DNA of 64,000 nt from Escherichia phage BP9: sequence record PP488543.1. One strand, written 5' to 3'. Made by a program: the position numbers and the translations under genes. The notes beneath the pieces were generated by a model that worked only from the letters and a program-made list of their open reading frames with translations, searched no databases and was not told the DNA's origin. Position 1 is the first letter of the stretch. Each line of letters starts with the position of its first letter. This document shows, one piece after another, positions 33,701-46,910 of this stretch.

Positions 33701-36345
33701 CCATGTCTATGCAAATCCCAGTAACAAATGGGTACAAACGTGTTGTAATGATCATTAAGTGCGACCTAATAGGTAAACAAGTTCTTGCGGAAAACGGTAC
33801 CTCCACACATCCTTTTGAGATCGCTCTACACTATCAGTTTGCTGACTCGCCTTTTGCAGGTGATAAGAGAATATCTGATACAGATACACAGCGTTGTAAG
33901 AAGGTGTTGTTAGGTGCAGGTTGGTGGTGGTATGAATTTGATTTAACAGACAAATTCACCGACACGTCAAAAGTTGTAACGGGTCTTCGCCTAGACCTTG
34001 GCGAGAACATGCATAAAGCTGTTTGTGATGGCACCTATGGTGATCCTACAGTATATCTAAAGTATGTCTCTTTTGAGCATCCGGAAGATGTTGTTTACGG
34101 TCCAAAACTGAGATTGTTTGGCAGTTGGATTGCAAAAGACAGGGTAGGCATGGGTAAAAAGGTAAGAGGGTTCTTAGTTGATGCAGGAACAGAGGACATG
34201 CTGGTTAATGCAGTATGGCCTGAATTGCCCGGCACTCAGTGGGATAACTCTGCCAAATCTATAAACTGGTTCAACATTCACAGGGCTATGTGGACCACTA
34301 ACTGCTACTTGTGGAGAGAGCTTAACGATCAGGCTTTTGGCTTCAGCAACGGCAGAAGGATGGCAATCATTTGCTGGACAACGCTGCAAAGGTGCTATGA
34401 CCATGACTACGAGATTGGCGGTAGGGCATGGAAAAATATCAGGGATAGAATCATAACCAATTTTGCAGACGACAACGGAGGTGGAGCACATAACTTCGGC
34501 ACAAGTAGACTTATTCACTTGAATGGGTCATCTGCATATAAGAAAGAGGGTTATTCTGGGTCTATGATCGAGTGGGGTCTGGTGAAAGATGCTCGCGTAT
34601 TGATGGGTCAACAACTTGCTGCTGCAATAGGACCTAACGCAGTGCAGTCTGTTAAACCAGCGTGGTTCGATATCCCAATATGGTCATCTGGAACACCAGG
34701 AACTGCGGCAATCAACCCTACCACTGGGGATCTGGAAATCTCTTGGGAGGACTTAAAGCAGGTTGGTGGCTGGGATAAGACTGGGTACCAAGTGCAATGG
34801 TGGAGATCTGACGGATCGTTAGCGGCTGATGAGTTTGTTAAGGACAATTTCTACACTATGTCCTCTGCAAAAGCACAGCAATTGTTTGGTCAAGCAACTC
34901 CGTCAACGATCACTATGTCTATGTGCTGTAAAGATACCAGGACTGGAGCTCTGGGGCCAAGGGTTGCTAAAGTTTTCTCAGGTATTAAGTGGAATCTTCC
35001 TGTTCAAAGTGTTTCATGGAAGCAAATAGGTGATAACAAGCTACTGGTTACTCCTGCCTGCCAGTTCAACGCAACTCTCAACGTTGACCCAGCTGTTGCA
35101 GCAAACTCGGCTAGAGCTTCTGACTTCTCTGTGTCTAACACTGCCATGGCAGATGTGAGAAAGATTGACACACTGAATGCCAGAATTACCTGTAAAAACA
35201 CTTATGGCACATTCCAGATCATCAACAACTTTACAGATGTTGATTCTAAGGCAGTGAGGACAGCCAGCCAGACTATGCAGTTAGGCACTCTGGCATACTC
35301 TGCACTGATCACTGAACAGTCTCCTACCCTTCAGGGTGGGGGTGTTGGTAAGTTGATTACAACTCCTGTATGGAAGCCAAATGAGTGGGTTGTATTCGAT
35401 TTGACTGTGGACTTCTCCAGTGATAATAACTGGACATGGGTAAGGAATTGTTTGTCACAGCTGATGGGTGGCCCAAACTCCATTAGTGATAGCCATGACT
35501 CTACTGACCCGAGTGTGTTCCAGGTTGGTAAAACTCACCCAGAAACTGGGGCACAGTTGCCTGACAGGAAGTATGCTTTGGTTTGCATCTCCAACGGCAA
35601 GGCAGATGTAACCTTCTCAGGGACACACACATATAACGGCACTTACAACTTCTCTAAAAAGTACAGCCTCAAGGCAGGTAACATTGTAGACGAGGTTGGT
35701 GCGTTGTATAATCCGGGAAACGGGATAGGGATTGTAGGTGGTAAACTGCAGATGCAGGAACCTTCTATTACCCCTTCCAATGTGCCAGGAATCAGAAAGA
35801 CTTGGGAAAGTAGTAATACCAACATTGCAACAGTGGATGCCACCACAGGATTGGTAACATTTAAAGCTACTGGGAATGTCACCATAAAGTTTGTAGTTAC
35901 AGATGATGCAGGGCGCAAAACGTCTTCAACATCTTTTACTGTCAAACAGATGGCACCGCAGTGGAGAATGTGGATAGGTACAGCAACAAACGGGGCATAC
36001 CCTAATCCGGCAGGTACTTCTGGTATGAAGACTTTCTCTACAAGCAAACCGATGGAGTACGGCAGCGGTCCTAAGGTAGGGCAGATGGTGTACTTTGGTG
36101 CGTATATTCCTGAAATTATAGGGCTTCCGAGAAGTCAGCTTCAGTTGCTGTTTGGGGCTGGTGTTGACGATCTTGCCACTTTCGGGTATAGCGACAACAT
36201 CGAGGCTGCAAGGAGTTCAGGATGGGTAGGGTTCAGAATGGAGTCTGGAAAGGAAGGCAGGATTCTAGGGACAGCCTCTATAGGTGTTATGTTCCCTGGT
36301 GACCAGCAGTATCGTCTAGAAGCCTACGCAACCTTTTCTCGTTAA
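30709..36345 (+). CDS. giant virion-associated protein (1878 aa) with N-terminal RCC1-like beta-propeller repeats and a C-terminal Big_2 Ig-like domain
   Basis: RCC1-like repeats (ITGYNRFGECRTGD, YGSGNNTYGSLH); Big_2-like segment VPGIRKTWESSNTNIATVDATTGLVTFKATGNVTIKFVVTDDAGRKTSSTSFTV; last gene of the fibre cluster before a bidirectional terminator. Confidence 0.5.
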   Translation: MLPIPLLKLGRHFLDKRGGVKELAVLSYPIDNSDGTSTTVAYVNSLAILFDDGQLNITGYNRFGECRTGDLDTINYPNEAAWNVDHVWRADRAFVIRTFDNQFFYIGCTAGLIGSDAAGGNDVCVREWTPLPEQIVKGLHLDTHPERLVEVMGGINNTVWVMAEAEGTGILHLYGSGNNTYGSLHVDKNQHATPVKIGETSENPETGPWKNPSINCEVHDNSVIFGGPKGFWIAGYDFLRNNSRNDLVWPPAQITRDDLRGIPADEEWKGFMCGPNGAVVVTQRMHRPDDQQLVNVFYGQNIWGDDTWRSLNLTYTHEVIMARGYGTSGIFFNNGTKQYRGFSRNLCNDIGAQSANNSPRDNFIHYQALATAKYVEQRLPVSWTESVYFQGIHREGFLGTFTVVNGKLWWSGIPRGSFAGSNNLFGGRLNSQGFTEVPENWYKNVPVDSWGVDDIFDVNGVSSVSNIYIGDTVKMKLKPQPEGATFIIDKIELVNAAGTVVTDANYQFSTNWNHGGANEVIVTQYNRNVNRRGLYSVKITYHDKHGTGRTHTTRTLNWNTIVPAYPSDGKWHTVGRNKQFHVNDTVYFGLNAAQPAVEGDTSYMVRLHRMDAGSVTYDVTQEIYNQRRNTYDNLVQTQALWEFNPNGRGGKMLQVNEQNGTSLTVHEHPNPWPDPGKPNSGARTLKIVSHDVGYFGIRWEATVRYADGTTNNIGITLGGTSENNSLKIAYTPRGISIDNMDVVRNGYGDVNIKVTLGEHLGGERIIMYAFDHDPRTNGTYADQAWSYLISAPEPNTKEFYYGMKRDVCKKTGTHDWIAICVKDERTAWNEPVNRWFIGIPTRSDKYVEEYIVCMGGTNLNMCWNGDANNKYSDYDYMRDYSCNQWFNQPGYADRQARVNPAIFTDTQVFLTKQANEVQTFKNKYDPNKWFYNCYGAFFWGPGELPGGGSCFESATYASDYIMGQVKKYKIIPGPETLGNAVDPYIVMTALRSNMDGTSMSMQIPVTNGYKRVVMIIKCDLIGKQVLAENGTSTHPFEIALHYQFADSPFAGDKRISDTDTQRCKKVLLGAGWWWYEFDLTDKFTDTSKVVTGLRLDLGENMHKAVCDGTYGDPTVYLKYVSFEHPEDVVYGPKLRLFGSWIAKDRVGMGKKVRGFLVDAGTEDMLVNAVWPELPGTQWDNSAKSINWFNIHRAMWTTNCYLWRELNDQAFGFSNGRRMAIICWTTLQRCYDHDYEIGGRAWKNIRDRIITNFADDNGGGAHNFGTSRLIHLNGSSAYKKEGYSGSMIEWGLVKDARVLMGQQLAAAIGPNAVQSVKPAWFDIPIWSSGTPGTAAINPTTGDLEISWEDLKQVGGWDKTGYQVQWWRSDGSLAADEFVKDNFYTMSSAKAQQLFGQATPSTITMSMCCKDTRTGALGPRVAKVFSGIKWNLPVQSVSWKQIGDNKLLVTPACQFNATLNVDPAVAANSARASDFSVSNTAMADVRKIDTLNARITCKNTYGTFQIINNFTDVDSKAVRTASQTMQLGTLAYSALITEQSPTLQGGGVGKLITTPVWKPNEWVVFDLTVDFSSDNNWTWVRNCLSQLMGGPNSISDSHDSTDPSVFQVGKTHPETGAQLPDRKYALVCISNGKADVTFSGTHTYNGTYNFSKKYSLKAGNIVDEVGALYNPGNGIGIVGGKLQMQEPSITPSNVPGIRKTWESSNTNIATVDATTGLVTFKATGNVTIKFVVTDDAGRKTSSTSFTVKQMAPQWRMWIGTATNGAYPNPAGTSGMKTFSTSKPMEYGSGPKVGQMVYFGAYIPEIIGLPRSQLQLLFGAGVDDLATFGYSDNIEAARSSGWVGFRMESGKEGRILGTASIGVMFPGDQQYRLEAYATFSR

Positions 36346-36354
36346 CAAGGGGTA

Positions 36355-36389
36355 AATAAAAAGGGGCCGTTTGGCCCCTTTCTTTTTAT
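36355..36389. terminator. bidirectional intrinsic terminator between convergent gene blocks
   Basis: aggggcc-gttt-ggcccct hairpin flanked by an A-run upstream and a T-run downstream; lies between the 36345 stop (+) and the 36392 stop (-). Confidence 0.75.
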
Positions 36390-36391
36390 AG

Positions 36392-36592
36392 TTAGTAATA
36401 CTCCCAACATGCCCCATCTTCAGACGGCTTGACGCGCTTACCTTTATGGTCAACATAGGTATAGCCACAACCTTCACAAATAACAGGTGCTGCATAGCCT
36501 TCCTTCCACTGATCCTCAGTGATCAGACCTTCCAAATCTTTGCAGTCAAAGCCAAACAACTCTTCAGAGCAATCTTTACAAAAATCAGCCAT
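36392..36592 (-). CDS. small zinc-ribbon protein (66 aa)
   Basis: Two CxxC pairs (CKDC ... CEGC). Confidence 0.4.
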   Translation of the reverse strand: MADFCKDCSEELFGFDCKDLEGLITEDQWKEGYAAPVICEGCGYTYVDHKGKRVKPSEDGACWEYY

Positions 36593-36595
36593 TTC

Positions 36596-37042
36596 TCAGT
36601 CCTCGCATTTAACAAATTTTTCTACAGATCCACCAAGCACAGCTTGTTGTTTGATGGCACTTTCTTCATCATAGTGGATAGACTTATGTTCCGTACCTCC
36701 AAACTTACCTGTGTGGAAGGTGTGCACCCAAATCTCTTTAGGAAGGGATTTATTCTCTTCTTCCACCAACTCCCACATTCCCCATAAGTGATCTGTGATA
36801 TCTCTGATGAAATATCCCTCGCCGAGGTTTGTATTCACACTATAAGCTGATTCGTGATTTCCACAAATATAACGGAAGGCTGTGTACTCTTTACCTGGTG
36901 TGAAGTGAGTGTCCATTAGTATAGCTGTTAAAGAATAAGGGTCTCGAAAGCCCAAGAACTTTAGTTTAACAATTTCGACATTTACATCTGCAAGATTGTT
37001 CATGACGATCTCCTCTGTTTGGTTGGTGAGATAATCATACAT
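36596..37042 (-). CDS. hypothetical protein (148 aa)
   Basis: ORF tightly packed in the minus-strand block; contains a GNHE tetrapeptide but no other phosphoesterase motifs. Confidence 0.35.
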   Translation of the reverse strand: MYDYLTNQTEEIVMNNLADVNVEIVKLKFLGFRDPYSLTAILMDTHFTPGKEYTAFRYICGNHESAYSVNTNLGEGYFIRDITDHLWGMWELVEEENKSLPKEIWVHTFHTGKFGGTEHKSIHYDEESAIKQQAVLGGSVEKFVKCED

Positions 37043-37167
37043 AGATCTGATGTTGGAGTCAAGCTTAATTTTAAACGATTTTGGGGAGGTATTTTGTTCA
37101 GGAGGGTAATCACATAGGGTAGGACAATTTATGAAGGCACAGGCCTCGTTTGAGGCCTTAAAATCGA

Positions 37168-37548
37168 TTATGACACTTTGACGTAACGCTCTGACAGAGC
37201 TGGAAAGCCAAAAGCAGTACCTATACTACCGTATGCTACCCACCATTGAAGTTCATCGTGACACCATTTTCCGATCAGGAAGGTGCTGGGGTAGCGGGTC
37301 AGTATTTTGGCATAAGCTTTAGGGTCTGCATCTTCTGGGATAATGATACTTGGAACATCTTTGTTATGACCACAGCAGCAGTTTAGAGTTTTCAATCCTG
37401 CCGCCCATAGACTCATGATAGGCTTAGCCATGCACTTATCAAGGCACACACGTTTTTTGCCGTCACGGAGCTTTTTAGGCACATCAACGATAACATTTTG
37501 ATGCTTGGCACCTTTCACTTTCCAATTATAGGATTTACACTTGCACAT
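37168..37548 (-). CDS. Cys-rich hypothetical protein (126 aa)
   Basis: Multiple Cys/His (CKCK, CLDKC, CCCGH, WCH), probably metal-binding; family not recognised. Confidence 0.35.
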   Translation of the reverse strand: MCKCKSYNWKVKGAKHQNVIVDVPKKLRDGKKRVCLDKCMAKPIMSLWAAGLKTLNCCCGHNKDVPSIIIPEDADPKAYAKILTRYPSTFLIGKWCHDELQWWVAYGSIGTAFGFPALSERYVKVS

Positions 37549-37754
37549 TTAATCAGTCTCCATCTAGAAAGCAATACTTTACTTAAAATCTTTGTCACCT
37601 ATTACGATTGCACGAATCCACTCATTGTGATGTTCAATGGCGGCAAGGCGTAACATAATGCAGTGATTGTCATTACTAAACACGGTGCGGTAAGCTTTAG
37701 CAGCACCATGATATAACTTCCACATCAGGTAATGATATCTTCGCCTCATAGCTC

Positions 37755-38226
37755 TTACTCCGGTTCAGGATCTGGGTAATCTTCAATAATAAAGGGCCAT
37801 CCGTTCCGCTTAGCCTCAGACTTATACTCAATCTCCTTCATTGCAAACTCTAACTGATTCTTAGCCGGAATACATGCCGGAGAATCATCAATCCAGATGT
37901 CTGGGTAGATATCAAACTGCGCCAGATAGGCTGCCTTCTGAACACCTCCAGTATAAAACACACCAACATCAAGCTCCTTGCGCCAATACTCAATGTCTAC
38001 ATTGTCTTGAGTAATGAATCGGAAAGTCACAAGGTAGACTGTCCACCCCCTCCTTCTTCAGATCCCTGATCAGGCGGGAGAAGATGAAAGGGCTCGCATT
38101 AAATGTTCCATCAAAGTCAATGGCAATGATGTGTGTGCCGTGGCGTGTCTCATATGGATTGCTTGTGGTAAGATTGCTGTAGTTAAAAGGGACCTCTTCC
38201 CCGCAGTAGCTGTAGTCCATATTCAC
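37755..38226 (-). pseudogene. HAD-superfamily 5'(3')-deoxyribonucleotidase-like phosphatase, split by a frameshift at a homopolymer run
   Basis: Track ORFs 37990..38226 (N-terminal part with the HAD motif IIAIDFDGTF) and 37755..38030 (C-terminal part with IWIDDSP) overlap in different frames. Removing one base from the C5 run at about 38046-38050 (G5 on the coding strand) gives one continuous ~157-aa HAD protein reading ...LKKEGWTVYLVTFR.... Confidence 0.6.
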
Positions 38227-38498
38227 ACCTTCTCGTTGATAAATTTACGGGCGGTTTGGTGAGTTGTTTCTGCTGTCTTCAGAATGATATTAATTTTATC
38301 GTCAAGATCATTCATCTCAGCAGTTAATTCAGGAATCTCTCCGGCATGCATGGTGAAATCATACATAGACATGCCAAGGATCTCATTGATTCGGCGGTTG
38401 CATTCTGCAGCACGCTGGTTCATTTTCCAAGCCAACACCAGAGCCTCTTGCGTAGCCTCCAGTGCAAAGTCTAATACGTCAGCTTCTTCTTTCGTCAT
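38223..38498 (-). CDS. hypothetical protein (91 aa)
   Basis: ORF in the co-directional block; stop/start overlap with the neighbouring gene. Confidence 0.35.
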   Translation of the reverse strand: MTKEEADVLDFALEATQEALVLAWKMNQRAAECNRRINEILGMSMYDFTMHAGEIPELTAEMNDLDDKINIILKTAETTHQTARKFINEKV

Positions 38499-38553
38499 CT
38501 CAGTCTCTCTTGTTGTATTGTTAGTAGGTGCATGAACACCTTATATCTCACTT

Positions 38554-39120
38554 TTATTCAAACTGCAATAGCAAGTCCACCACCGCGCTAGGTCTGTCAA
38601 CAAATTCCCCAGGTCCACATGCCCACAGAGGGTATCCGTCCACATACCGCCAAATCCAACCTGCAGTGTGGAGTTCGAGCAGGGCAGTACCGTCCTTACT
38701 GTCAACCACTCTTTCCCACAGTGTTGGGCAGCGAAGCTTGAGAATCGGATCACCTCCCTTATACCCGTCCATGTAGATACCCATTGCAAAGTTCAGCATC
38801 ATCTTTTTGTGCACTGATCTCTTACTGAGGGTGCTCATCACTTCCTCTTTGTGAATGTTTGTAAGCTTCTCTTTGGCTACCTGCAGATCGTTGCAACCAT
38901 TGTTCAGCAGATCTTCCAGACACTTGATCCGGAGGTCGTGAATGTCTTTGTCGTGTACCGTTGGCACAGGGTCGTAGCGGTATAGCACTGTTGATACAAG
39001 GTTGCTCGGGTGTGGGTCTGACAGCAACCCATAACCCCAATACTCTTCTGTATCTGAAAGGACAAGACACCCAATGTCTCTGTCAAGCTTTCCTGTGTTG
39101 TAAGCCACATTGACCGCCAT
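38554..39120 (-). CDS. hypothetical protein (188 aa)
   Basis: ORF in the co-directional block; no motif recognised. Confidence 0.4.
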   Translation of the reverse strand: MAVNVAYNTGKLDRDIGCLVLSDTEEYWGYGLLSDPHPSNLVSTVLYRYDPVPTVHDKDIHDLRIKCLEDLLNNGCNDLQVAKEKLTNIHKEEVMSTLSKRSVHKKMMLNFAMGIYMDGYKGGDPILKLRCPTLWERVVDSKDGTALLELHTAGWIWRYVDGYPLWACGPGEFVDRPSAVVDLLLQFE

Positions 39121-39122
39121 GA

Positions 39123-39368
39123 CTATAGCTCCACTAGCAAAGTGCTTTCAAAGTGCCGTTCATGCAGACCGTTGTAAGGGACCACTTCCACAACACCATC
39201 ACGGACATACGGGGCCATCATAGTGGTATAATCTCCAAACGGGTTGGTATTGTCACTAACCACAACCACCTTCTGCCCTTCCTTGGCAGAGTGCCAAATA
39301 GATCTACACTTCATCAGGTGTTCGAGAGCTCCAGGTAAAATTTTGTTACGTTCTTTACGGGTCTTCAT
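39123..39368 (-). CDS. hypothetical protein (81 aa)
   Basis: ORF in the co-directional block. Confidence 0.3.
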   Translation of the reverse strand: MKTRKERNKILPGALEHLMKCRSIWHSAKEGQKVVVVSDNTNPFGDYTTMMAPYVRDGVVEVVPYNGLHERHFESTLLVEL

Positions 39369-39814
39369 AACAGATATAGCTCCTTATGAAAGTGGTCTTT
39401 TAATTTCTCACTGAGAAACTTCTTGATACCTTCCTCTAAAGTGTTTTCGATGTAGTCCAGCTTAACTGCTTCGATGGACATATCATAGATCGCCAGCTCT
39501 AAGCTGTCAAGTCCCATCATAGCATGAACCATAAGATTTTCATCTTCAGATACATTCAGGGGACTTCCTATAACATCTGTAGGTAGGATAGTTTCCCAAT
39601 TATTCTGAGTGGTAGTTCTCCCACCATCCACTTTACGGCGCAGTTCGAAGGTGTTCTTAGTGTAGAACACTTCATAAGAAACGATACGACTATCGCTCTC
39701 ATAATAAACGAAGTTCAGGTAGGAGCCTAGCCGCAGTCGGCAAACTTCTACCCCAAACCATTGTTTCTTATAAGAATTCAGGCTAATGCTGTCGCATTCA
39801 CGCTTGCTCAACAC
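39365..39814 (-). CDS. hypothetical protein (149 aa)
   Basis: ORF in the co-directional block; 4-bp overlap with the downstream gene. Confidence 0.4.
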   Translation of the reverse strand: MLSKRECDSISLNSYKKQWFGVEVCRLRLGSYLNFVYYESDSRIVSYEVFYTKNTFELRRKVDGGRTTTQNNWETILPTDVIGSPLNVSEDENLMVHAMMGLDSLELAIYDMSIEAVKLDYIENTLEEGIKKFLSEKLKDHFHKELYLL

Positions 39815-39830
39815 GGCTATCTCCTTTTTG

Positions 39831-40064
39831 TTAATCTTCGTAAATCAGGATTTCTGCTTTAGGTTTTCGTGCTTTCAAGTCCAGCTCTATCCAGTGCACC
39901 ATAGCTGTTTCAAGAAAAACAGCTTGGATGCATCCGTCCTCAGCGTGCCCCACCAACATAACAAGATCTTCACCTTCGTCATCTGCATCACGAACATACA
40001 GAATATCTCCAGATTCAAAGTCTTTCACAACCTGATTGCTGGATAATTTACGAATTTTTGCCAT
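39831..40064 (-). CDS. hypothetical protein (77 aa)
   Basis: ORF in the co-directional block. Confidence 0.3.
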   Translation of the reverse strand: MAKIRKLSSNQVVKDFESGDILYVRDADDEGEDLVMLVGHAEDGCIQAVFLETAMVHWIELDLKARKPKAEILIYED

Positions 40065-40065
40065 A

Positions 40066-40329
40066 TCAGAAACCCTCTAAAAAGCTCTTGTAGAAAACAA
40101 TCTCAGTATCAACACCAGTCACGATCTTGTCGTTCCGGATTTCATCGGTAAGATAGGTGTCAAAACGCAGAACCTGTGTGGTGTTGTCACACATCCACTC
40201 AGCTGTGACCATTGCGAAAATCTTAGCATCTTCATTATCTGGTGTGAATGTTACCACCTCGCCGCATTTAAACTTTTCGATAGGTTGCGTGTTAGCTTTC
40301 GGTTCTGCAATAGTGATTTTCGTGGTCAT
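40066..40329 (-). CDS. hypothetical protein (87 aa)
   Basis: ORF in the co-directional block. Confidence 0.3.
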   Translation of the reverse strand: MTTKITIAEPKANTQPIEKFKCGEVVTFTPDNEDAKIFAMVTAEWMCDNTTQVLRFDTYLTDEIRNDKIVTGVDTEIVFYKSFLEGF

Positions 40330-40595
40330 TACTCTTCCTCCATAGTTTCACCAAATACTTCGATACGAGCATCGAGCTCGGTTGCTTTCAGCTCCCCAAC
40401 AAAATCTTTTAGTTCTTTCTCATCCAGATCGTAAGCCCACACACAAGAAGAACATGCAGATTTCACAATCAGCAGCGTAGATACACGACCTGACTCTGTG
40501 ATCATGCTCACAATGGTCCCCACAGGGAACGTGTTGATAGCTTTTTTAACTGGACGTTCAGCTTTAATTACTACCTCTGTTGCCATAAATAACAT
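40329..40595 (-). CDS. hypothetical protein (88 aa)
   Basis: ORF in the co-directional block. Confidence 0.3.
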   Translation of the reverse strand: MLFMATEVVIKAERPVKKAINTFPVGTIVSMITESGRVSTLLIVKSACSSCVWAYDLDEKELKDFVGELKATELDARIEVFGETMEEE

Positions 40596-40601
40596 CCTCT
40601 C

Positions 40602-42083
40602 TTACTTAGCGTACTCGATTAATTCCACAGTTTTACCAAAGCTAGGGATATAATTTTTATTATACCCTTCGGTGAGAACCCATAAAGTATCGTACTTTTT
40701 CCACTTGTTGTCAACAGCCTTTTGTTCAAAGTTATGCTCAAAGTATAGGTCGGTCAGGACGATGACATCTTTTGCATTTGGTATGTTGGCATCCAGATAC
40801 TCGAACACGCAAGCAGCTGTTGTGCCCCATGTTGAGTGGACCTCATAGTTGATCATTTCGTCTATGTTGCCGCGAGTATATACTTTAACCTCTCCGACTT
40901 CAGTTGACCAACAGAACATTGTAACCTTAAACTCTTTATACAGATTGCACAATCCGGTGATTTCATTGAACATTTTCTTTAAAGTTCTTTGAGAGATCGA
41001 GCCAGAAACGTCTAAAGCTACCACAATATCTATGGTGTTTTCCGGATTACGACCAGGAACAATAACGTGCTGGTTCTTGTTTATAGCCCCAACTTTTCGC
41101 ATTGTGCTGGTCAAAGACCCAGATCGGCGACCAGGTTTTCTGTAGGTCAGTTCGGCCTTTCGTTTAGACAACATGCGTTGCTTAATGATGTCTATATAGT
41201 TGATTACAGGCTTACCTCTGTTCTTGACAAACTCACGCACCGCCTCGGGGCAACGACCTCCGGAAGCTTGCATTGCTGCTTCCAGCATGTCACCAGAGTC
41301 TTGCATGGCCTGATCTTTATCAGATTGGCTGATTACAGGTTGTGGCTGATCATACCCCATAGCCTTTCCAAGATCATCGCTGGTGCCACCGTTCCCACTC
41401 ATGTGATCATCGGTTTGTCGCTTATCCCCTTGAGAGTTCTCACCTTTACCGCTCTTACTTTTACCGTTATTCTGATCTCTTTGCTTATCAAGAACCGCAT
41501 AGACGTTCTCAGCAATCCATCCATGAAACCTCATGTCGCAGTAGCAGCTGGCTAAGAAACCAAAAGGCTTACCTTTCACGAACGTAGTGCTTTTCCCCTT
41601 CGGGAAGAAAACACAGGGAGGCTTGCTAAAGTCAACCACAAGACCTGTGTTGATAACATGATCACAAGCAATATTAAACAGTTCCGGCTCGAAGCTTTTA
41701 CCACGGACCAGGTGATCACAGATAATATGCCCCACCTCGTGTGACAGAAGAAAAGCCACCTCTTTCACAGATTTGGGAGAATAGAAAACCTCAGCCATCT
41801 CAAACTGTTCGTCAGTTAGAGAAGCCTTAAGAATAGCCTTGCGTTCATCAGCCAATCCCATAATGAACTCAGGGCTGTAATAGATGCGTTTATGGTCGGT
41901 TGCCATGGTGGAGCACCATGTGTGGTTTTCTACGAACTGCAATCCTGACAGCAGTGTGCCATAAAACGGCAGCTTTTCAAGGAGATACATACGTGCAGCC
42001 TGCAACATTCTCAGGGCATCATCTTTCTGTGAGGCAATGATTTCTGAACTTCTGCTATCCATTAAAACTCCAGAAGGGGCCAA
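40602..42083 (-). CDS. VWA-domain protein with N-terminal zincin-like (HExxH) domain (DUF2201-type), 493 aa
   Basis: HEVGH metallopeptidase motif (LLSHEVGHIICDH) in the N-terminal half and a MIDAS motif (IVVALDVSGSIS) in the C-terminal half. Confidence 0.7.
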   Translation of the reverse strand: MAPSGVLMDSRSSEIIASQKDDALRMLQAARMYLLEKLPFYGTLLSGLQFVENHTWCSTMATDHKRIYYSPEFIMGLADERKAILKASLTDEQFEMAEVFYSPKSVKEVAFLLSHEVGHIICDHLVRGKSFEPELFNIACDHVINTGLVVDFSKPPCVFFPKGKSTTFVKGKPFGFLASCYCDMRFHGWIAENVYAVLDKQRDQNNGKSKSGKGENSQGDKRQTDDHMSGNGGTSDDLGKAMGYDQPQPVISQSDKDQAMQDSGDMLEAAMQASGGRCPEAVREFVKNRGKPVINYIDIIKQRMLSKRKAELTYRKPGRRSGSLTSTMRKVGAINKNQHVIVPGRNPENTIDIVVALDVSGSISQRTLKKMFNEITGLCNLYKEFKVTMFCWSTEVGEVKVYTRGNIDEMINYEVHSTWGTTAACVFEYLDANIPNAKDVIVLTDLYFEHNFEQKAVDNKWKKYDTLWVLTEGYNKNYIPSFGKTVELIEYAK

Positions 42084-42095
42084 TGGCCCCTGTCA

Positions 42096-43151
42096 TTATT
42101 TAACGTGTTTGAAAATACCTGCCAACTCGGTCATTGTCATGCGGGTGGTCTTCATAAGATCTGTCATAGCTTTCTCCATAATTGGAGATACTACCATAAA
42201 GTTACCCTTGGTGAAACCTTTATTCCAGTCGGTCACTAATAGTGGTTTAAGTCCGACCCCGAGACGCTCACCAGTTAAAGCACAACATTTTCGAATGTAC
42301 GTGCTCTTAAATTGACTGAATGACAGATCAACTTTCATACCTGCATCGTAGAACGTCTGACAATAGAAAGTGTAAGCTTTGGCAATCTCAACATCGTCAG
42401 GCAGTGCAGGAACCTCTTCTGTGAGCTCTTCTTCGTCCCCTTGAGGCTCTTTTTCCTCTTCGTAAGCCTGTTGCGCCACTTCTTTAATCTCCTCTGCTGC
42501 AGGCTCGTTTACAATGTCAGAAATGTGCTTGTTGGCTCCACGGTTAGCCATGAAGTTTTTAAAATCCTGCATTGGTGACATATCTTCCTCCCATTCTTCG
42601 TCAAAGAGTGCCAGTTTATCCTCTTCCGTCCCATATTGCAAGATGAAATCTTCAAAAGTGTAATCACCTTTCAATTTCTCCATGCGCTCTTCGCTCAGGT
42701 GGAGCATCATCTGCTGGACAATTTTTCGATCAGTTTTGTCTTTAATCAAGATTGCGGTCTTTTTATCTACCAGGCAGTCTTTCAGAGAGTTACACCTCAA
42801 TCCTACCACACAACAGTTATCAATTGCGTAAGGACCTTCATCATCTATCCGCTCCAGAGATGGGTAGAAAGGATTCCCCAGCCCGTTTTCATCTGTGTAC
42901 ATGTCGAAAGGTATAAGGGTATAGTCGCATACCCCCTCTCCTAAAAGTTTTTTACCAAATAGGAGGTATTCTTCCCATGACAGGTTGAACTCTATATCCC
43001 GTTTCCGTGCATTATTCTGTTTGCGTCTATATTTTTTGAGCAGGCGCTCTAACTCTTCTGGTGTATAATATTTTTCAAGATTCATGAGTTGTCTCTTGTG
43101 CTCTGTAGGTGAAGAAATCTTATCAAGTGCCTCAACAGATGTCAACCTCAA
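42096..43151 (-). CDS. hypothetical protein (351 aa) with acidic linker
   Basis: TTG start at 43151 in the track; first gene of the minus-strand block, read from a divergent promoter region; no family recognised. Confidence 0.4.
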   Translation of the reverse strand: MRLTSVEALDKISSPTEHKRQLMNLEKYYTPEELERLLKKYRRKQNNARKRDIEFNLSWEEYLLFGKKLLGEGVCDYTLIPFDMYTDENGLGNPFYPSLERIDDEGPYAIDNCCVVGLRCNSLKDCLVDKKTAILIKDKTDRKIVQQMMLHLSEERMEKLKGDYTFEDFILQYGTEEDKLALFDEEWEEDMSPMQDFKNFMANRGANKHISDIVNEPAAEEIKEVAQQAYEEEKEPQGDEEELTEEVPALPDDVEIAKAYTFYCQTFYDAGMKVDLSFSQFKSTYIRKCCALTGERLGVGLKPLLVTDWNKGFTKGNFMVVSPIMEKAMTDLMKTTRMTMTELAGIFKHVK

Positions 43152-43158
43152 AAACGTG

Positions 43159-43187
43159 TTGACTTTACCCTAAATCCACGATATAGT
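43159..43187 (+). promoter_or_regulatory. sigma70-type promoter (TTGACT-17 bp-TATAGT) for the plus-strand accessory block
   Basis: -35 at 43159-43164, -10 at 43182-43187 in the divergent intergenic region; AGGAG Shine-Dalgarno precedes the ATG at 43228. Confidence 0.5.
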
Positions 43188-43227
43188 GCACCCATTCGAA
43201 AGAAAACGAACACAGGAGTACTTAATC

Positions 43228-44127
43228 ATGGCAAATCTTAACAGCTTTAGCACTCGGTGGAAACAAGATATCACAACCAATCTCTCAGCAGGCGATATCC
43301 TTTCTGCAATTTACGAGGCTTTGGATGATAAAGCTACTTCAAAAGCGGTTTGTACCAACCCACTAATTCCTGTAGTGATGAAGGTTATTGAGCGTAGATT
43401 GGTATCTGGGTCTGATAAGTGGACATATTTAGATAATGAAGGACACACCTATTCCAATGGGTACGTCGATATAAAAGTAGAATACGCGGTATCATACCGC
43501 CGGAGCGGTTCTGTAACTTTCAACTTCTCTGGAGGTTTTCGATCTCTGGCTACCTCACCTTTTGTTTCCTCAGAGGAGAAGTATGAGCTTCCATTTCTTT
43601 GGATGATGGCTAACGCGACAGGAAAAACCCCCGTTAGCATCCGAGTAAAATACAACTACAACGGATCTAGTAAGATCTATGCCGAGAGTGTCTCAGCAAG
43701 TTTTTATTTTGTGATGGGGGATGGAATCCTCAAACATATAAAGATGTGCGATATGCATGATGTTATAAATGAAGTGACTGATAAGAATGTTCTGGTGAAG
43801 GATCTCAACAATTTTTATACACCCGGAGACTATTACGTCAGCCGTCCACTGTGCATCTTTAATGCCGCACACCCTCTAGGTGAGTATTTGATCGCCAATA
43901 GCGATATTGCCAATAACCGCTTCGAGGTAGCAAGAGTACAGAATGAGGTATTGACATCTTGCAAGAGCGGTGATAAGTTTACCGAAGAAGAGATGGGTGT
44001 TTTAGAAATGATGGGATATAAGTGTAGCCTTTGGGTAGATGAGGTGTTTAATGATTGCATCTATGGACAGGATATTTACCCATTAAAGAAGTATACTGAT
44101 TCCAGTTTAATTTACGCGGAGATTTGA
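43228..44127 (+). CDS. hypothetical protein (300 aa)
   Basis: ATG at 43228 with AGGAG Shine-Dalgarno; the track start at 43186 overlaps the promoter -10. Confidence 0.45.
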   Translation: MANLNSFSTRWKQDITTNLSAGDILSAIYEALDDKATSKAVCTNPLIPVVMKVIERRLVSGSDKWTYLDNEGHTYSNGYVDIKVEYAVSYRRSGSVTFNFSGGFRSLATSPFVSSEEKYELPFLWMMANATGKTPVSIRVKYNYNGSSKIYAESVSASFYFVMGDGILKHIKMCDMHDVINEVTDKNVLVKDLNNFYTPGDYYVSRPLCIFNAAHPLGEYLIANSDIANNRFEVARVQNEVLTSCKSGDKFTEEEMGVLEMMGYKCSLWVDEVFNDCIYGQDIYPLKKYTDSSLIYAEI

Positions 44128-45456: not shown

Positions 45457-45726
45457 ATGTTATACCAGCAATATGAACTTCGTGCAGAAAAAGAGTTAAA
45501 TTTTGACAAAGATATTCACAGATATTATTATGGGAAAGTTAGAGGGCAAGCAAGAAAGTGTACTCCAACACTCTTTTATGCCAGCAGACGACTAGCGCCA
45601 GAAGAGGCAACAGCAGAAAGGGTTGCGTACAACTGGAGAGTCACGTATGATATTGACAGATCCGATGTGATATCTGTTTTGGAAAACTTTGAAAACACTT
45701 ACACACAAGTAGAGGACTTTTACTAA
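45457..45726 (+). CDS. hypothetical protein (89 aa)
   Basis: Tightly packed ORF whose stop overlaps the ATPase start. Confidence 0.35.
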   Translation: MLYQQYELRAEKELNFDKDIHRYYYGKVRGQARKCTPTLFYASRRLAPEEATAERVAYNWRVTYDIDRSDVISVLENFENTYTQVEDFY

Positions 45727-46910
45727 TGTCAAGAAACGTATTTGAAAGTGGTCAAATCACTGTCCGTGAGTTGCCAGCTATCATTCAGTTTGCCCAGCGT
45801 CATAACCGATCTGTCCTGATTTTAGGACCAATGGGTGTGGGAAAGAGCCAGGTGATGAAGCAGATCGCAGACAATATGTTCGGTGAGCGAGATGACAACT
45901 TGGTTGACGTGCGGTTGTCAGATAAAGATCCTGCCGACTTATCTGGGCTACCTATCCCTGTAGAAGCGGATGGAACTACACGTACAGTGTTTGCAATTCC
46001 AGAATTTTGGCCTGCGGATCCTGGCTGGAGCGGAATTATCTTTCTGGATGAGCTCACTCATGCAGATAACTACCTGCAAAAGGTTGCAATGCAAATTATG
46101 CTCGACCACAAGTGCGGTACCTATGCATTCCCTAAAGGTTCTGTTTTTGTGGCTGCTGGTAACCGTTCTACAGATGGTGCGGTTCTTTCGGCGCTCGAAG
46201 CCCCTCTGGCTAACCGTTTTATCATTGTAGAAGTTACAAGCAATGCAGAGGTGTTTATTGAGGACTACGCATTCCTTAATGGGGTGCACTCCTCTGTAAT
46301 TGGATATTTGAAAAGAGTTCCATCAGCTATCGATAATTATGAGGCTATGGCTGAGATTAATTGTCCATCTTTTGCCACACCACGATCTTGGGTTGCTGCA
46401 TCTGACATCTTGCACGATTTTGACAGCGGTATTATTTCTGACGCTATGGCCCGTGTTCTTCTGCAAGGTGCTGTTGGTCACACTGCAGCGGTAGAGATCT
46501 GGACTTACCACATCAAGAAACGTAACTTACCGGAAATCGGTCGGATTATGGCAGGAGGTTGCAAAGAATATGTAGGTCCTAAACAGCCAGACATCTTGTG
46601 GATTCTTGGATCTGAAGGTTGTATCGCTATTCGTAATATGATGGAAAATGCAAGTATCTCCGACGAAGATCTTGTTAGCTGTGTGGCAAACTTCCTCGAT
46701 TTCCTTTGGGAAAATTTCAAGGACGAGAACCGAGATTTTGTATTCTCAGTCTTTATGGCGATGATGAAACCTAATGCCTTAGGAAATGCCTTGCTTATCG
46801 GTAAAGGGCGTGACAAGATTGTTGCTCAGCTGATCAAAGCATACCCAAACCTAATGAAGATTGTAAAAGAGTTTGGTGAAGAGTTTAGCGCCATTTTGGC
46901 TAAAGCTTGA
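45726..46910 (+). CDS. MoxR-type AAA+ ATPase (AAA_5 family)
   Basis: Walker A LILGPMGVGKSQ, Walker B IIFLDELTHA, sensor region VFVAAGNRSTDGA..LANRF typical of MoxR/RavA-like ATPases. Confidence 0.8.
   Translation: MSRNVFESGQITVRELPAIIQFAQRHNRSVLILGPMGVGKSQVMKQIADNMFGERDDNLVDVRLSDKDPADLSGLPIPVEADGTTRTVFAIPEFWPADPGWSGIIFLDELTHADNYLQKVAMQIMLDHKCGTYAFPKGSVFVAAGNRSTDGAVLSALEAPLANRFIIVEVTSNAEVFIEDYAFLNGVHSSVIGYLKRVPSAIDNYEAMAEINCPSFATPRSWVAASDILHDFDSGIISDAMARVLLQGAVGHTAAVEIWTYHIKKRNLPEIGRIMAGGCKEYVGPKQPDILWILGSEGCIAIRNMMENASISDEDLVSCVANFLDFLWENFKDENRDFVFSVFMAMMKPNALGNALLIGKGRDKIVAQLIKAYPNLMKIVKEFGEEFSAILAKA

Follow-up and report, generated by a model that had tools for sequence, protein, structure and literature searches.

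The leftward block of Escherichia phage BP9 that corresponds to Vequintavirus genes 11-26: gene content, conservation and predicted functions

Identity, boundaries and layout of the block

The stretch of Escherichia phage BP9 analyzed here (record PP488543.1; a window of 64,000 nucleotides, to which the BP9 coordinates refer) contains a run of 14 contiguous open reading frames (ORFs) on the minus strand, lying between a terminator hairpin at 36360-36381 and a pair of divergent promoter-like sites at 43117-43187. Reading leftward from these promoter-like sites, the run includes a gene for a relative of the phage T4 protein Srd (ORF11), a gene combining a zincin with a vWA domain (ORF12), a subfamily-conserved neighbor of the latter (ORF17), a split gene with the motifs of HAD phosphatases (ORF21), a cysteine-rich candidate metal-binding protein (ORF24) and a number of small genes. 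A first-pass annotation made from the sequence alone had delineated a compact leftward block of about 14 minus-strand genes with these boundaries, and the ORF listing, the GC skew, which reverses at 36-44 kb to match the leftward genes, and scans for terminators and promoters all bear this out.

The block is not an undescribed feature. BP9 is a Vequintavirus, an rV5-like myovirus of E. coli, and the block is the already known set of Vequintavirus genes 11-26, annotated as hypothetical genes in more than 100 genomes. Kropinski et al. 2013 (PMC3606486) named "genes 11-26" of rV5 as a transcriptional unit with a bidirectional terminator and promoters, and the annotation tables of rV5 and AlexBoehm are collinear with the BP9 block, which runs from ORF26 to ORF11 in the rV5 numbering used below. 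Whole-block collinearity with Vequintavirus genes 11-26, rV5 included, extends over 100% coverage at 94.8-97.4% identity. A 7-kb query over the block recovered 121 phage records at 90-99% identity (rV5 itself at 94.8% nucleotide identity), and in 113 of the 121 one matched region takes in 80% or more of the query length, with gene order and content kept. Two further genes of rV5, ORF13 and ORF23, overlap better-supported genes and have been dropped in newer annotations; they are probably spurious. A search with 36300-43300 additionally returned 16-18 records titled 'Campylobacter phage' (MG0656xx, host given as Campylobacter jejuni) that are 95-97% identical to the block, and the host labels on these records look doubtful.

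The left boundary is a two-way intrinsic terminator hairpin (AAAGGGGCC-GTTT-GGCCCCTTT, 36360-36381) recovered by the terminator scan, with an A-run upstream and a T-run downstream, that closes both the block and the converging tail-fibre gene; two terminators are annotated in rV5 at the orthologous site. At the right boundary, consensus matching recovered a leftward promoter-like site with an extended -10 TG (TTGACA-17-TAAGAT; 43145-43117, minus strand), at whose orthologous place promoter P11 is annotated in rV5, and a rightward divergent site (TTGACT-17-TATAGT; 43159-43187, plus strand). The right-hand coordinate of 43151 given in the first-pass annotation is merely the first in-frame TTG of the longest ORF11 frame; the -35 and -10 hexamers of the leftward promoter-like site sit within that extension, and therefore ORF11 most likely starts at ATG 43085, giving 329 amino acids as in the annotation of ECP26. 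The start of ORF12 is most likely ATG 42062, behind a GGAG, rather than TTG 42083.

The compact leftward arrangement agrees with the proposal that the block is a single operon, but an internal promoter-like site and two hairpins speak against it. The internal site is sigma-70-like (TTGACT-17-TATGAT; 37062-37034, minus strand; a consensus match only) and lies upstream of ORF25-ORF26, the former of which has a GAGGAG ribosome-binding site preceding its ATG at 37003. One hairpin, read from the sequence (AGGCCTC-AAAC-GAGGCCT; 37141-37158, minus strand), lies just past the stop codon of ORF24, and the other, a GC-rich hairpin of 7 bp (42075-42091, minus strand), lies between ORF11 and ORF12. Neither is followed by a clear T-run, and both could attenuate transcription or stabilize the mRNA. 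Given this hairpin, the promoter-like site at 37062-37034 and the GAGGAG before ORF25, the block looks like two leftward units, ORF11-24 and ORF25-26, both ending at the 36360-36381 hairpin. A scan of the block against Rfam recovered no RNA family.

Selection and phyletic spread

The ratio of non-synonymous to synonymous polymorphism (pN/pS), pooled against four relatives (rV5, AlexBoehm, A51.2 and ECP26), is 0.008-0.11 for 13 of the genes and 0.30 for the 56-residue ORF22; hence all 14 ORFs are real genes under purifying selection. In three other Vequintavirinae genomes, namely Seunavirus GEC_vB_MG, a Klebsiella phage and Certrevirus DU_PP_IV, homologues were recovered only for ORF11 (39% identity), ORF12 (35-45%), ORF17 (about 28%) and ORF21 (40-48%). 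The ten genes besides these four classify, by sequence comparison, as genus-restricted or mobile small genes. At the DNA level, similarity outside the genus was seen only for ORF26 (about 70% to Felixounavirus) and for part of the ORF12 vWA gene.

ORF11, a protein homologous to part of T4 Srd

ORF11 (42096-43085, minus strand) shows profile matches to phrog_4592 ('decoy of host sigma70', E 4.6e-13) and phrog_1400 ('Srd anti-sigma factor', E 1.9e-9), and BLASTP aligns its N-terminal ~140 residues with T4 Srd itself (24% identity over 143 residues, E 2e-7), so that its similarity to the T4 Srd family is significant. The module recurs, with a weaker match, at residues 253-299 (E 0.002 versus T4 Srd). 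The two proteins are not collinear over their full length, as only residues 4-133 of Srd align and the remainder of ORF11 is made up of a linker and the second module. ORF11 also matches PHROGs of the HNH and endonuclease VII families, and in the T4 Srd alignment (a reading of that alignment, not a run test) a Glu-Arg pair occupies the positions of the HNH His-His. Together, these matches and this replacement suggest that the two copies are degenerate, non-catalytic HNH-like modules. The label 'HNH endonuclease', which PHROG and RefSeq entries attach to ORF11, is rejected, as the T4 Srd alignment indicates that the HNH histidines are absent.

T4 Srd was first postulated to be a decoy of sigma-70 and sigma-38. 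Later it was described as a stimulator of RNase E (Qi 2015, as cited in PMC4980113), which it reportedly binds through the catalytic, N-terminal half of the enzyme, speeding the decay of host mRNA. By analogy, ORF11 might bind a host protein of RNA metabolism or transcription (RNase E in the case of T4) and thereby tilt expression in favor of the phage.

ORF12, its probable ATPase partner and ORF17

ORF12 (40602-42062, minus strand; 486 amino acids) yields two Pfam matches well above threshold, to DUF2201_N, a putative metallopeptidase (E 7e-28; 98.4 bits against a cut-off of 23.2), and to the vWA-like DUF2201 (E 3.6e-11; 43.7 bits against a cut-off of 26.4). The first-pass calls of a zincin/vWA protein, as well as those of a zinc-ribbon and a Cys-rich protein elsewhere in the block, are correct. 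Homologues of ORF12 were recovered by tblastn in 666 phage records, including jumbo phages and N4-like podoviruses, in which the protein is termed 'N4 gp25-like'. The residues of the HExxH motif and the metal-ion-dependent adhesion site (MIDAS), namely H115, E116, H119, D358, S360, S362, T421 and D445, are invariant in six distant homologues, in an alignment that spans Vequintavirinae, a jumbo Asteriusvirus and Litunavirus LIT1. Single-sequence searches of the PDB with ORF12, ORF11 and ORF21 recovered no match.

A candidate partner for ORF12 is encoded outside the block, in the divergent unit: an AAA+ ATPase (45726-46910, plus strand) which is annotated as MoxR in AlexBoehm, matches phrog_1297 (ATPase) and has rIIA/rIIB, helicase, primase and polymerase genes as neighbors. 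It is 36% identical to a Certrevirus ATPase whose gene shares an operon with the vWA gene, two genes upstream of it, and 27% identical (E 1e-23) to the 'N4 gp24-like' protein of LIT1, in which a single small gene separates the gp24-like and gp25-like genes. It is thus the probable partner of ORF12. In N4, gp24 and gp25 are transcribed in the middle period, and both count among the 14 genes that make up the core of N4-like phages (PMC4193335). The MoxR and zincin-vWA pair was described in jumbo phages by Iyer et al., who suggested that it takes part in virion assembly and in the accompanying proteolytic processing (PMC7824862). As in such MoxR-vWA pairs, ORF12 could combine a zincin protease with a vWA/MIDAS domain and serve the ATPase as adaptor and protease: the vWA domain would hold a protein substrate, the ATPase would remodel it and the zincin domain would cut it.

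In the Vequintavirinae genera compared, the subfamily-conserved ORF17 (39365-39814, minus strand; 149 amino acids) always occurs directly downstream of ORF12, of which it is the positional partner, and it would be a likely third component or substrate of the system. Profile searches of the PDB with the ORF17 and ORF24 families recovered nothing. PHROG 6790 and RefSeq give ORF17 the label 'tail protein', and elsewhere it is called a 'holin'; no basis was found for either.

Across records, the labels of ORF12, ORF11 and ORF17 homologues clash ('HNH endonuclease', 'anti-sigma factor', 'DNA repair ATPase', 'tail protein', 'putative holin', 'polynucleotide kinase'), and most of these appear to be propagated mislabels. 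In the case of ORF12, 'HNH endonuclease' (PHROG and RefSeq) is rejected, the protein being a zincin-vWA, and 'anti-sigma factor' and 'DNA repair ATPase', found in some records, are likewise mislabels.

ORF21, a probable HAD-type phosphatase split by one extra G

ORF21 (37755-38220, minus strand) is split in two in BP9 and encodes 154 amino acids in rV5; its relatives are encoded at 80 IMG/VR loci. Across 45 aligned homologues there is no variation at D35, D37, T39, T65 and K95 and little at D111 and D112 (at least 90% conserved), and these residues correspond in order to HAD motifs I (DxDxT), II (T), III (K) and IV (DD). A profile search of the PDB with ORF21 recovered 12 sub-threshold matches, 8 of them to members of the HAD superfamily. 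Given the four motifs and the HAD proteins among these matches, ORF21 is a probable HAD-type phosphatase, which might be of the capless kind and act on a phosphorylated small molecule or a nucleic-acid end. The first-pass description of a frameshifted HAD nucleotidase thus stands as regards the HAD-like character and the frameshift, while 'nucleotidase' is unsupported, the motifs being those of the superfamily. The 'polynucleotide kinase' label on ORF21 relatives in some records is also unsupported, as there is no kinase domain.

The split results from an extra G, the run at 38046-38050 being G5 in BP9 and G4 in five relatives (alignment including rV5 and AlexBoehm). None of 73 records contains a perfect match to a 54-nucleotide stretch around this run, 71 of them matching at 95-99% identity; among the matches listed, seven of eight align one base shorter than BP9 at the run, while JLBYU08 is one base longer there and has the gene likewise annotated in two parts. 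Both halves of ORF21 show pN/pS below 0.04. Since G4 is found in most records and both halves are under purifying selection, the break is most likely an error in the homopolymer or a mutation of very recent date, rather than decay; in BP9 the gene would accordingly be either inactivated or misread through a single G. Programmed frameshifting is rejected as a reading, the intact G4 run being the norm. The length of the run at 38046-38050 varies among records, pointing to a recurrent homopolymer error or a mutation hot spot.

ORF24, a member of a very large uncurated phage family

A word-index search with ORF24 (37168-37548, minus strand; 126 amino acids, Cys-rich) recovered only 9 relatives, whereas scanning the full set of 1.84 billion representatives with HMMER recovered 959 clusters of the family at E<=1e-3 (clusters made at 50% identity), mostly of about 100 amino acids. 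In 30 of these clusters C2, C4, S6, N8, D37, C39, W48, T54, C58, C59 and H61 are invariant, defining the signature C-x-C...D-x-C...W...T-x3-C-C-G-H, and a DNA pattern of its D-x-C...W...T...C-C-G-H core occurs in at least 120 IMG/VR viral contigs. The family has no Pfam entry and matches only PHROGs of unknown function. The AlphaFold2 (AF2) model of ORF24 has a mean predicted local distance difference test (pLDDT) of 84.8 and a predicted template modeling score (pTM) of 0.78. Clustering of the neighbors of 118 ORF24-family genes revealed no recurrent partner, only a handful of DNA methyltransferases and a single fusion to a methyltransferase. ORF24 is a widespread, probably metal-binding phage protein.

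Small genus-restricted genes and two variable spots

ORF14 (40329-40595, minus strand; 88 amino acids) and ORF15 (40066-40329, minus strand; 87 amino acids) together occupy 40066-40595 on the minus strand, with counterparts in other Vequintavirus loci at L008 3969-4758 and L007 4180-4969. BLASTP among the block proteins detected no paralogy; a comparison of the ORF14-family profile with ORF15 using hhalign gave a probability of 84% (E 7e-6 over 75 columns), and the two genes therefore form a tandem array of distant paralogues. The same profile gave no support in hhalign for ORF16 or ORF18 as further paralogues. ORF14 belongs to a copy-variable family: where BP9 has one such gene, ECP26 and A51.2 have two other paralogues, about 40% identical. 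A second variable spot is the slot of ORF25 (36596-37003, minus strand; 135 amino acids), a protein that PHROG matches split at about residue 95 into an N-terminal domain and a mobile C-terminal module of ~45 amino acids. The C-module occurs alone in T1-like and T7-like phages, and A51.2 has the N-module alone together with an unrelated gene in this slot. If the block contains host-specific arms-race genes, these two spots, the ORF14/15 array and the ORF25 slot, are where they would best be sought.

With a concatenated query of seven small ORFs no homologue was recovered outside the genus for ORF14, ORF15, ORF16 (39831-40064, minus strand; 77 amino acids; phrog_12046), ORF20 (38223-38498, minus strand; 91 amino acids; phrog_12604) or ORF22 (37579-37749, minus strand; basic; phrog_12006). 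ORF20 is helical or coiled-coil-like, its only Pfam and NCBIfam matches being weak ones of coiled-coil type. ORF19 (38554-39120, minus strand; 188 amino acids) is an orphan that tblastn located solely in Vequintavirus, in 115 records with 95% or more amino acid identity throughout, and has no family match in Pfam, PHROGs, NCBIfam or PADLOC. ORF18 (39123-39368, minus strand; 81 amino acids; phrog_4868) has one weak match outside, in a Klebsiella phage (28.6% identity, E 4e-3). The zinc-ribbon protein ORF26 (36392-36592, minus strand; 66 amino acids with CxxC...CxxC; phrog_2210) has homologues with 60-72% amino acid identity in Felixounavirus and T5-like phages, a likeness that suggests exchange or strong constraint.

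In line with the first-pass annotation, most products of the block match nothing characterized in Pfam, NCBIfam, PHROGs, PADLOC or the PDB; accordingly, it is not the case that most of them are confidently homologous to known housekeeping phage proteins.

Expression and function of the block

The proposed late motif of rV5, TGGTAAAATA, occurs 16 times in the window with at most one mismatch, against 5.5 expected, and 14 of these 16 occurrences are on the plus strand of the structural region (1-34.5 kb). In the block it has one mismatched occurrence, within the coding sequence of ORF11, and none in intergenic positions; near-consensus sigma-70-type promoter motifs are found instead. The middle expression of the N4 homologues gp24 and gp25 bears on timing as well, and none of gp11-26 is among the 19 proteins detected in rV5 virions. 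We consider it somewhat probable that the block consists of early or middle, non-virion accessory units that combine a host-takeover function, one half of a core chaperone-protease pair, a HAD phosphatase and several unknowns, and that it is a mosaic rather than one system. Its two leftward units would then be read by the host sigma-70 RNA polymerase ahead of the late structural genes, and their products would act within the infected cell and not as virion components, with the remaining ten small proteins possibly serving as genus-specific or mobile host-interaction factors. In this picture the genes present, their conservation, the motifs, the homologies and the consensus matches of promoters and terminator are observations, whereas timing, partnerships and all biochemical activities are inferences.

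Several points weigh against this. As regards timing, the literature yielded no transcript-timing data for any Vequintavirus, the promoter hexamers are no more than matches to a consensus, and sigma-70-like promoters were noted by the rV5 authors throughout the genome (PMC3606486); absence from virions is weak evidence because mass spectrometry detected 19 proteins only. As regards the individual proteins, the Srd match is limited to the N-terminal ~140 residues of ORF11 at 24% identity. The Pfam matches of the ATPase to AAA/MoxR (AAA_5/bpMoxR) are all below the cut-offs, for which reason the MoxR class is plausible but not confirmed, and the ATPase and ORF12 genes are on opposite strands, 3.6 kb apart. 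None of the 45 ORF21 homologues matches Pfam, the PDB matches of ORF21 to AphA, 2obb, 3mpo, 1ys9 and 3epr have E values of 0.08-1, and its HAD assignment rests on the motifs. ORF17 and ORF24 have confident structure models with no fold match (for the ORF24 model, in the PDB or BFVD), so that the roles proposed for them are guesses.

A more speculative extension, which we consider possible but on the unlikely side, is that ORF24 represents an undescribed metal-binding fold or enzyme. Separately, the ORF14/15 array, ORF19 and others could inhibit host immunity or other host processes in new ways, and ORF17 could be an unrecognized third component of the AAA+/vWA-zincin system.

The first-pass annotation had supposed that such blocks usually encode host-takeover or anti-defence functions. 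The homology of ORF11 to T4 Srd gives substance to the first of these, and the variable array and the cassette are suggestive, but for anti-defence there is no direct evidence; nor is this reading supported for the block as a whole, its largest conserved gene, ORF12, being part of a pair that N4-like phages have in their core, that also occurs in jumbo phages and that the literature reads as a chaperone/protease pair. In its strong form, this would be an anti-defence island, most of whose small genes inhibit bacterial immunity such as restriction-modification, abortive infection or retrons. The ten small genes that are genus-restricted or mobile and fall in no characterized family, the variation in copy number and alleles of the ORF14/ORF15 array among close relatives, the replaceable cassette at the ORF25 slot and the early expression that the strong promoters make likely would all be expected of such an island. 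Yet the Vequintavirinae are reported to be 'exceptionally susceptible' to restriction-modification and commonly hit by abortive-infection systems (PMC8594841), and the genes are highly conserved (ORF19 at least 95% identical across its records) under strong purifying rather than diversifying selection. No named defence or anti-defence family was matched in PADLOC (nine block proteins), Pfam, PHROGs or NCBIfam, a comparison that included no dedicated anti-defence library, and the largest genes of the block are core genes of other phage families; an island of this kind is hence improbable in our estimation. That much of the block is mere filler, i.e. selfish or decaying small ORFs devoid of function with the frameshifted HAD gene as an example, is far less probable still: the breaks of that gene in BP9 and JLBYU08 and the cassette replacement at the ORF25 slot are set against a pN/pS far below 1 for every gene, both halves of the split gene included, against gene order and content kept in 113 of 121 records, and against the intact G4 run counted in 71 of 73 records, which makes a sequencing error in the homopolymer, or else a very recent mutation, the most likely cause of the break.

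A morphogenesis-helper role is a live rival for the ORF12/ATPase pair, although as an account of the pair and its neighbors together, by which they would fold, assemble or mature virion parts such as the three nearby tail-fibre sets, we rate it as rather unlikely. The jumbo-phage MoxR and vWA-zincin pair was proposed to act in assembly and processing by analogy with a tail-development pair of ATV (PMC7824862), the block adjoins a large tail-fibre gene, PHROG 6790 labels ORF17 'tail protein', and the pair is core across N4-like phages, as would be expected of a basic function of the replication cycle. However, the block is on the strand opposite the structural genes, has promoter motifs of sigma-70 rather than late type, and ends at a terminator that faces the fibre gene. 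Furthermore, the N4 homologues are middle genes amid replication genes, and the BP9 ATPase sits with the rIIA/B, helicase, primase and polymerase genes. That gp11-26 were not found in rV5 virions also argues against such a role, though a chaperone need not be packaged, and the 'tail protein' labels could be traced to no experiment. The literature yielded no Vequintavirus escape mutants or tested functions for genes of the block. An early or middle accessory mosaic remains the reading that we favor.

Significance

The rV5-like phages are among the most often isolated E. coli phages and are used in typing, biocontrol and therapy. The 6.7-kb block is present in every rV5-like member, with most of its products hypothetical, and four of its genes (ORF11, ORF12, ORF17 and ORF21) are ancient within the subfamily. 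As the ATPase/vWA-protease pair to which ORF12 would belong is core in N4-like phages too, what is learned about it would apply to many phage families, and ORF24 opens onto a very large uncurated family of phage proteins. As the outcome of a genome scan, a known and annotated block of hypothetical genes is ordinary; for new biology, the ORF24 family, the trio of ORF12, ORF17 and the ATPase, and the ORF14/15 array hold the most promise.

Comparison with known systems

The closest known system is the set of rV5 genes 11-26, with which the BP9 block shares gene order and boundaries, i.e. the bidirectional terminator and the divergent promoters. It differs from it in the splitting of ORF21 by one extra G, in having a single ORF14 allele at a position that two different paralogues occupy in some relatives, and in the start sites chosen here for ORF11, ORF12 and ORF25, which differ from those of some annotations. 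With T4 Srd, ORF11 has the N-terminal region of ~140 residues in common, and its gene lies nearest the promoter in a unit of early type; in contrast, it is longer (329 versus 248 amino acids), with an acidic linker and a second module towards the C-terminus, and the C-terminal half of Srd is unmatched in it. ORF21 resembles the capless HAD phosphatases, such as the class B acid phosphatase AphA and the phosphatase domain of T4 polynucleotide kinase, in the order and identity of motifs I-IV, but it is very small (~100-150 amino acids) and lacks a significant profile match. Finally, ORF12 and the ATPase share with N4 gp24/gp25 and with the MoxR and zincin-vWA pair of jumbo phages the two-domain architecture, the HExxH and MIDAS motifs and a homologous ATPase, whereas here 3.6 kb separates the two genes, which belong to divergent units, and the extra conserved neighbor, ORF17, is found only in Vequintavirinae.

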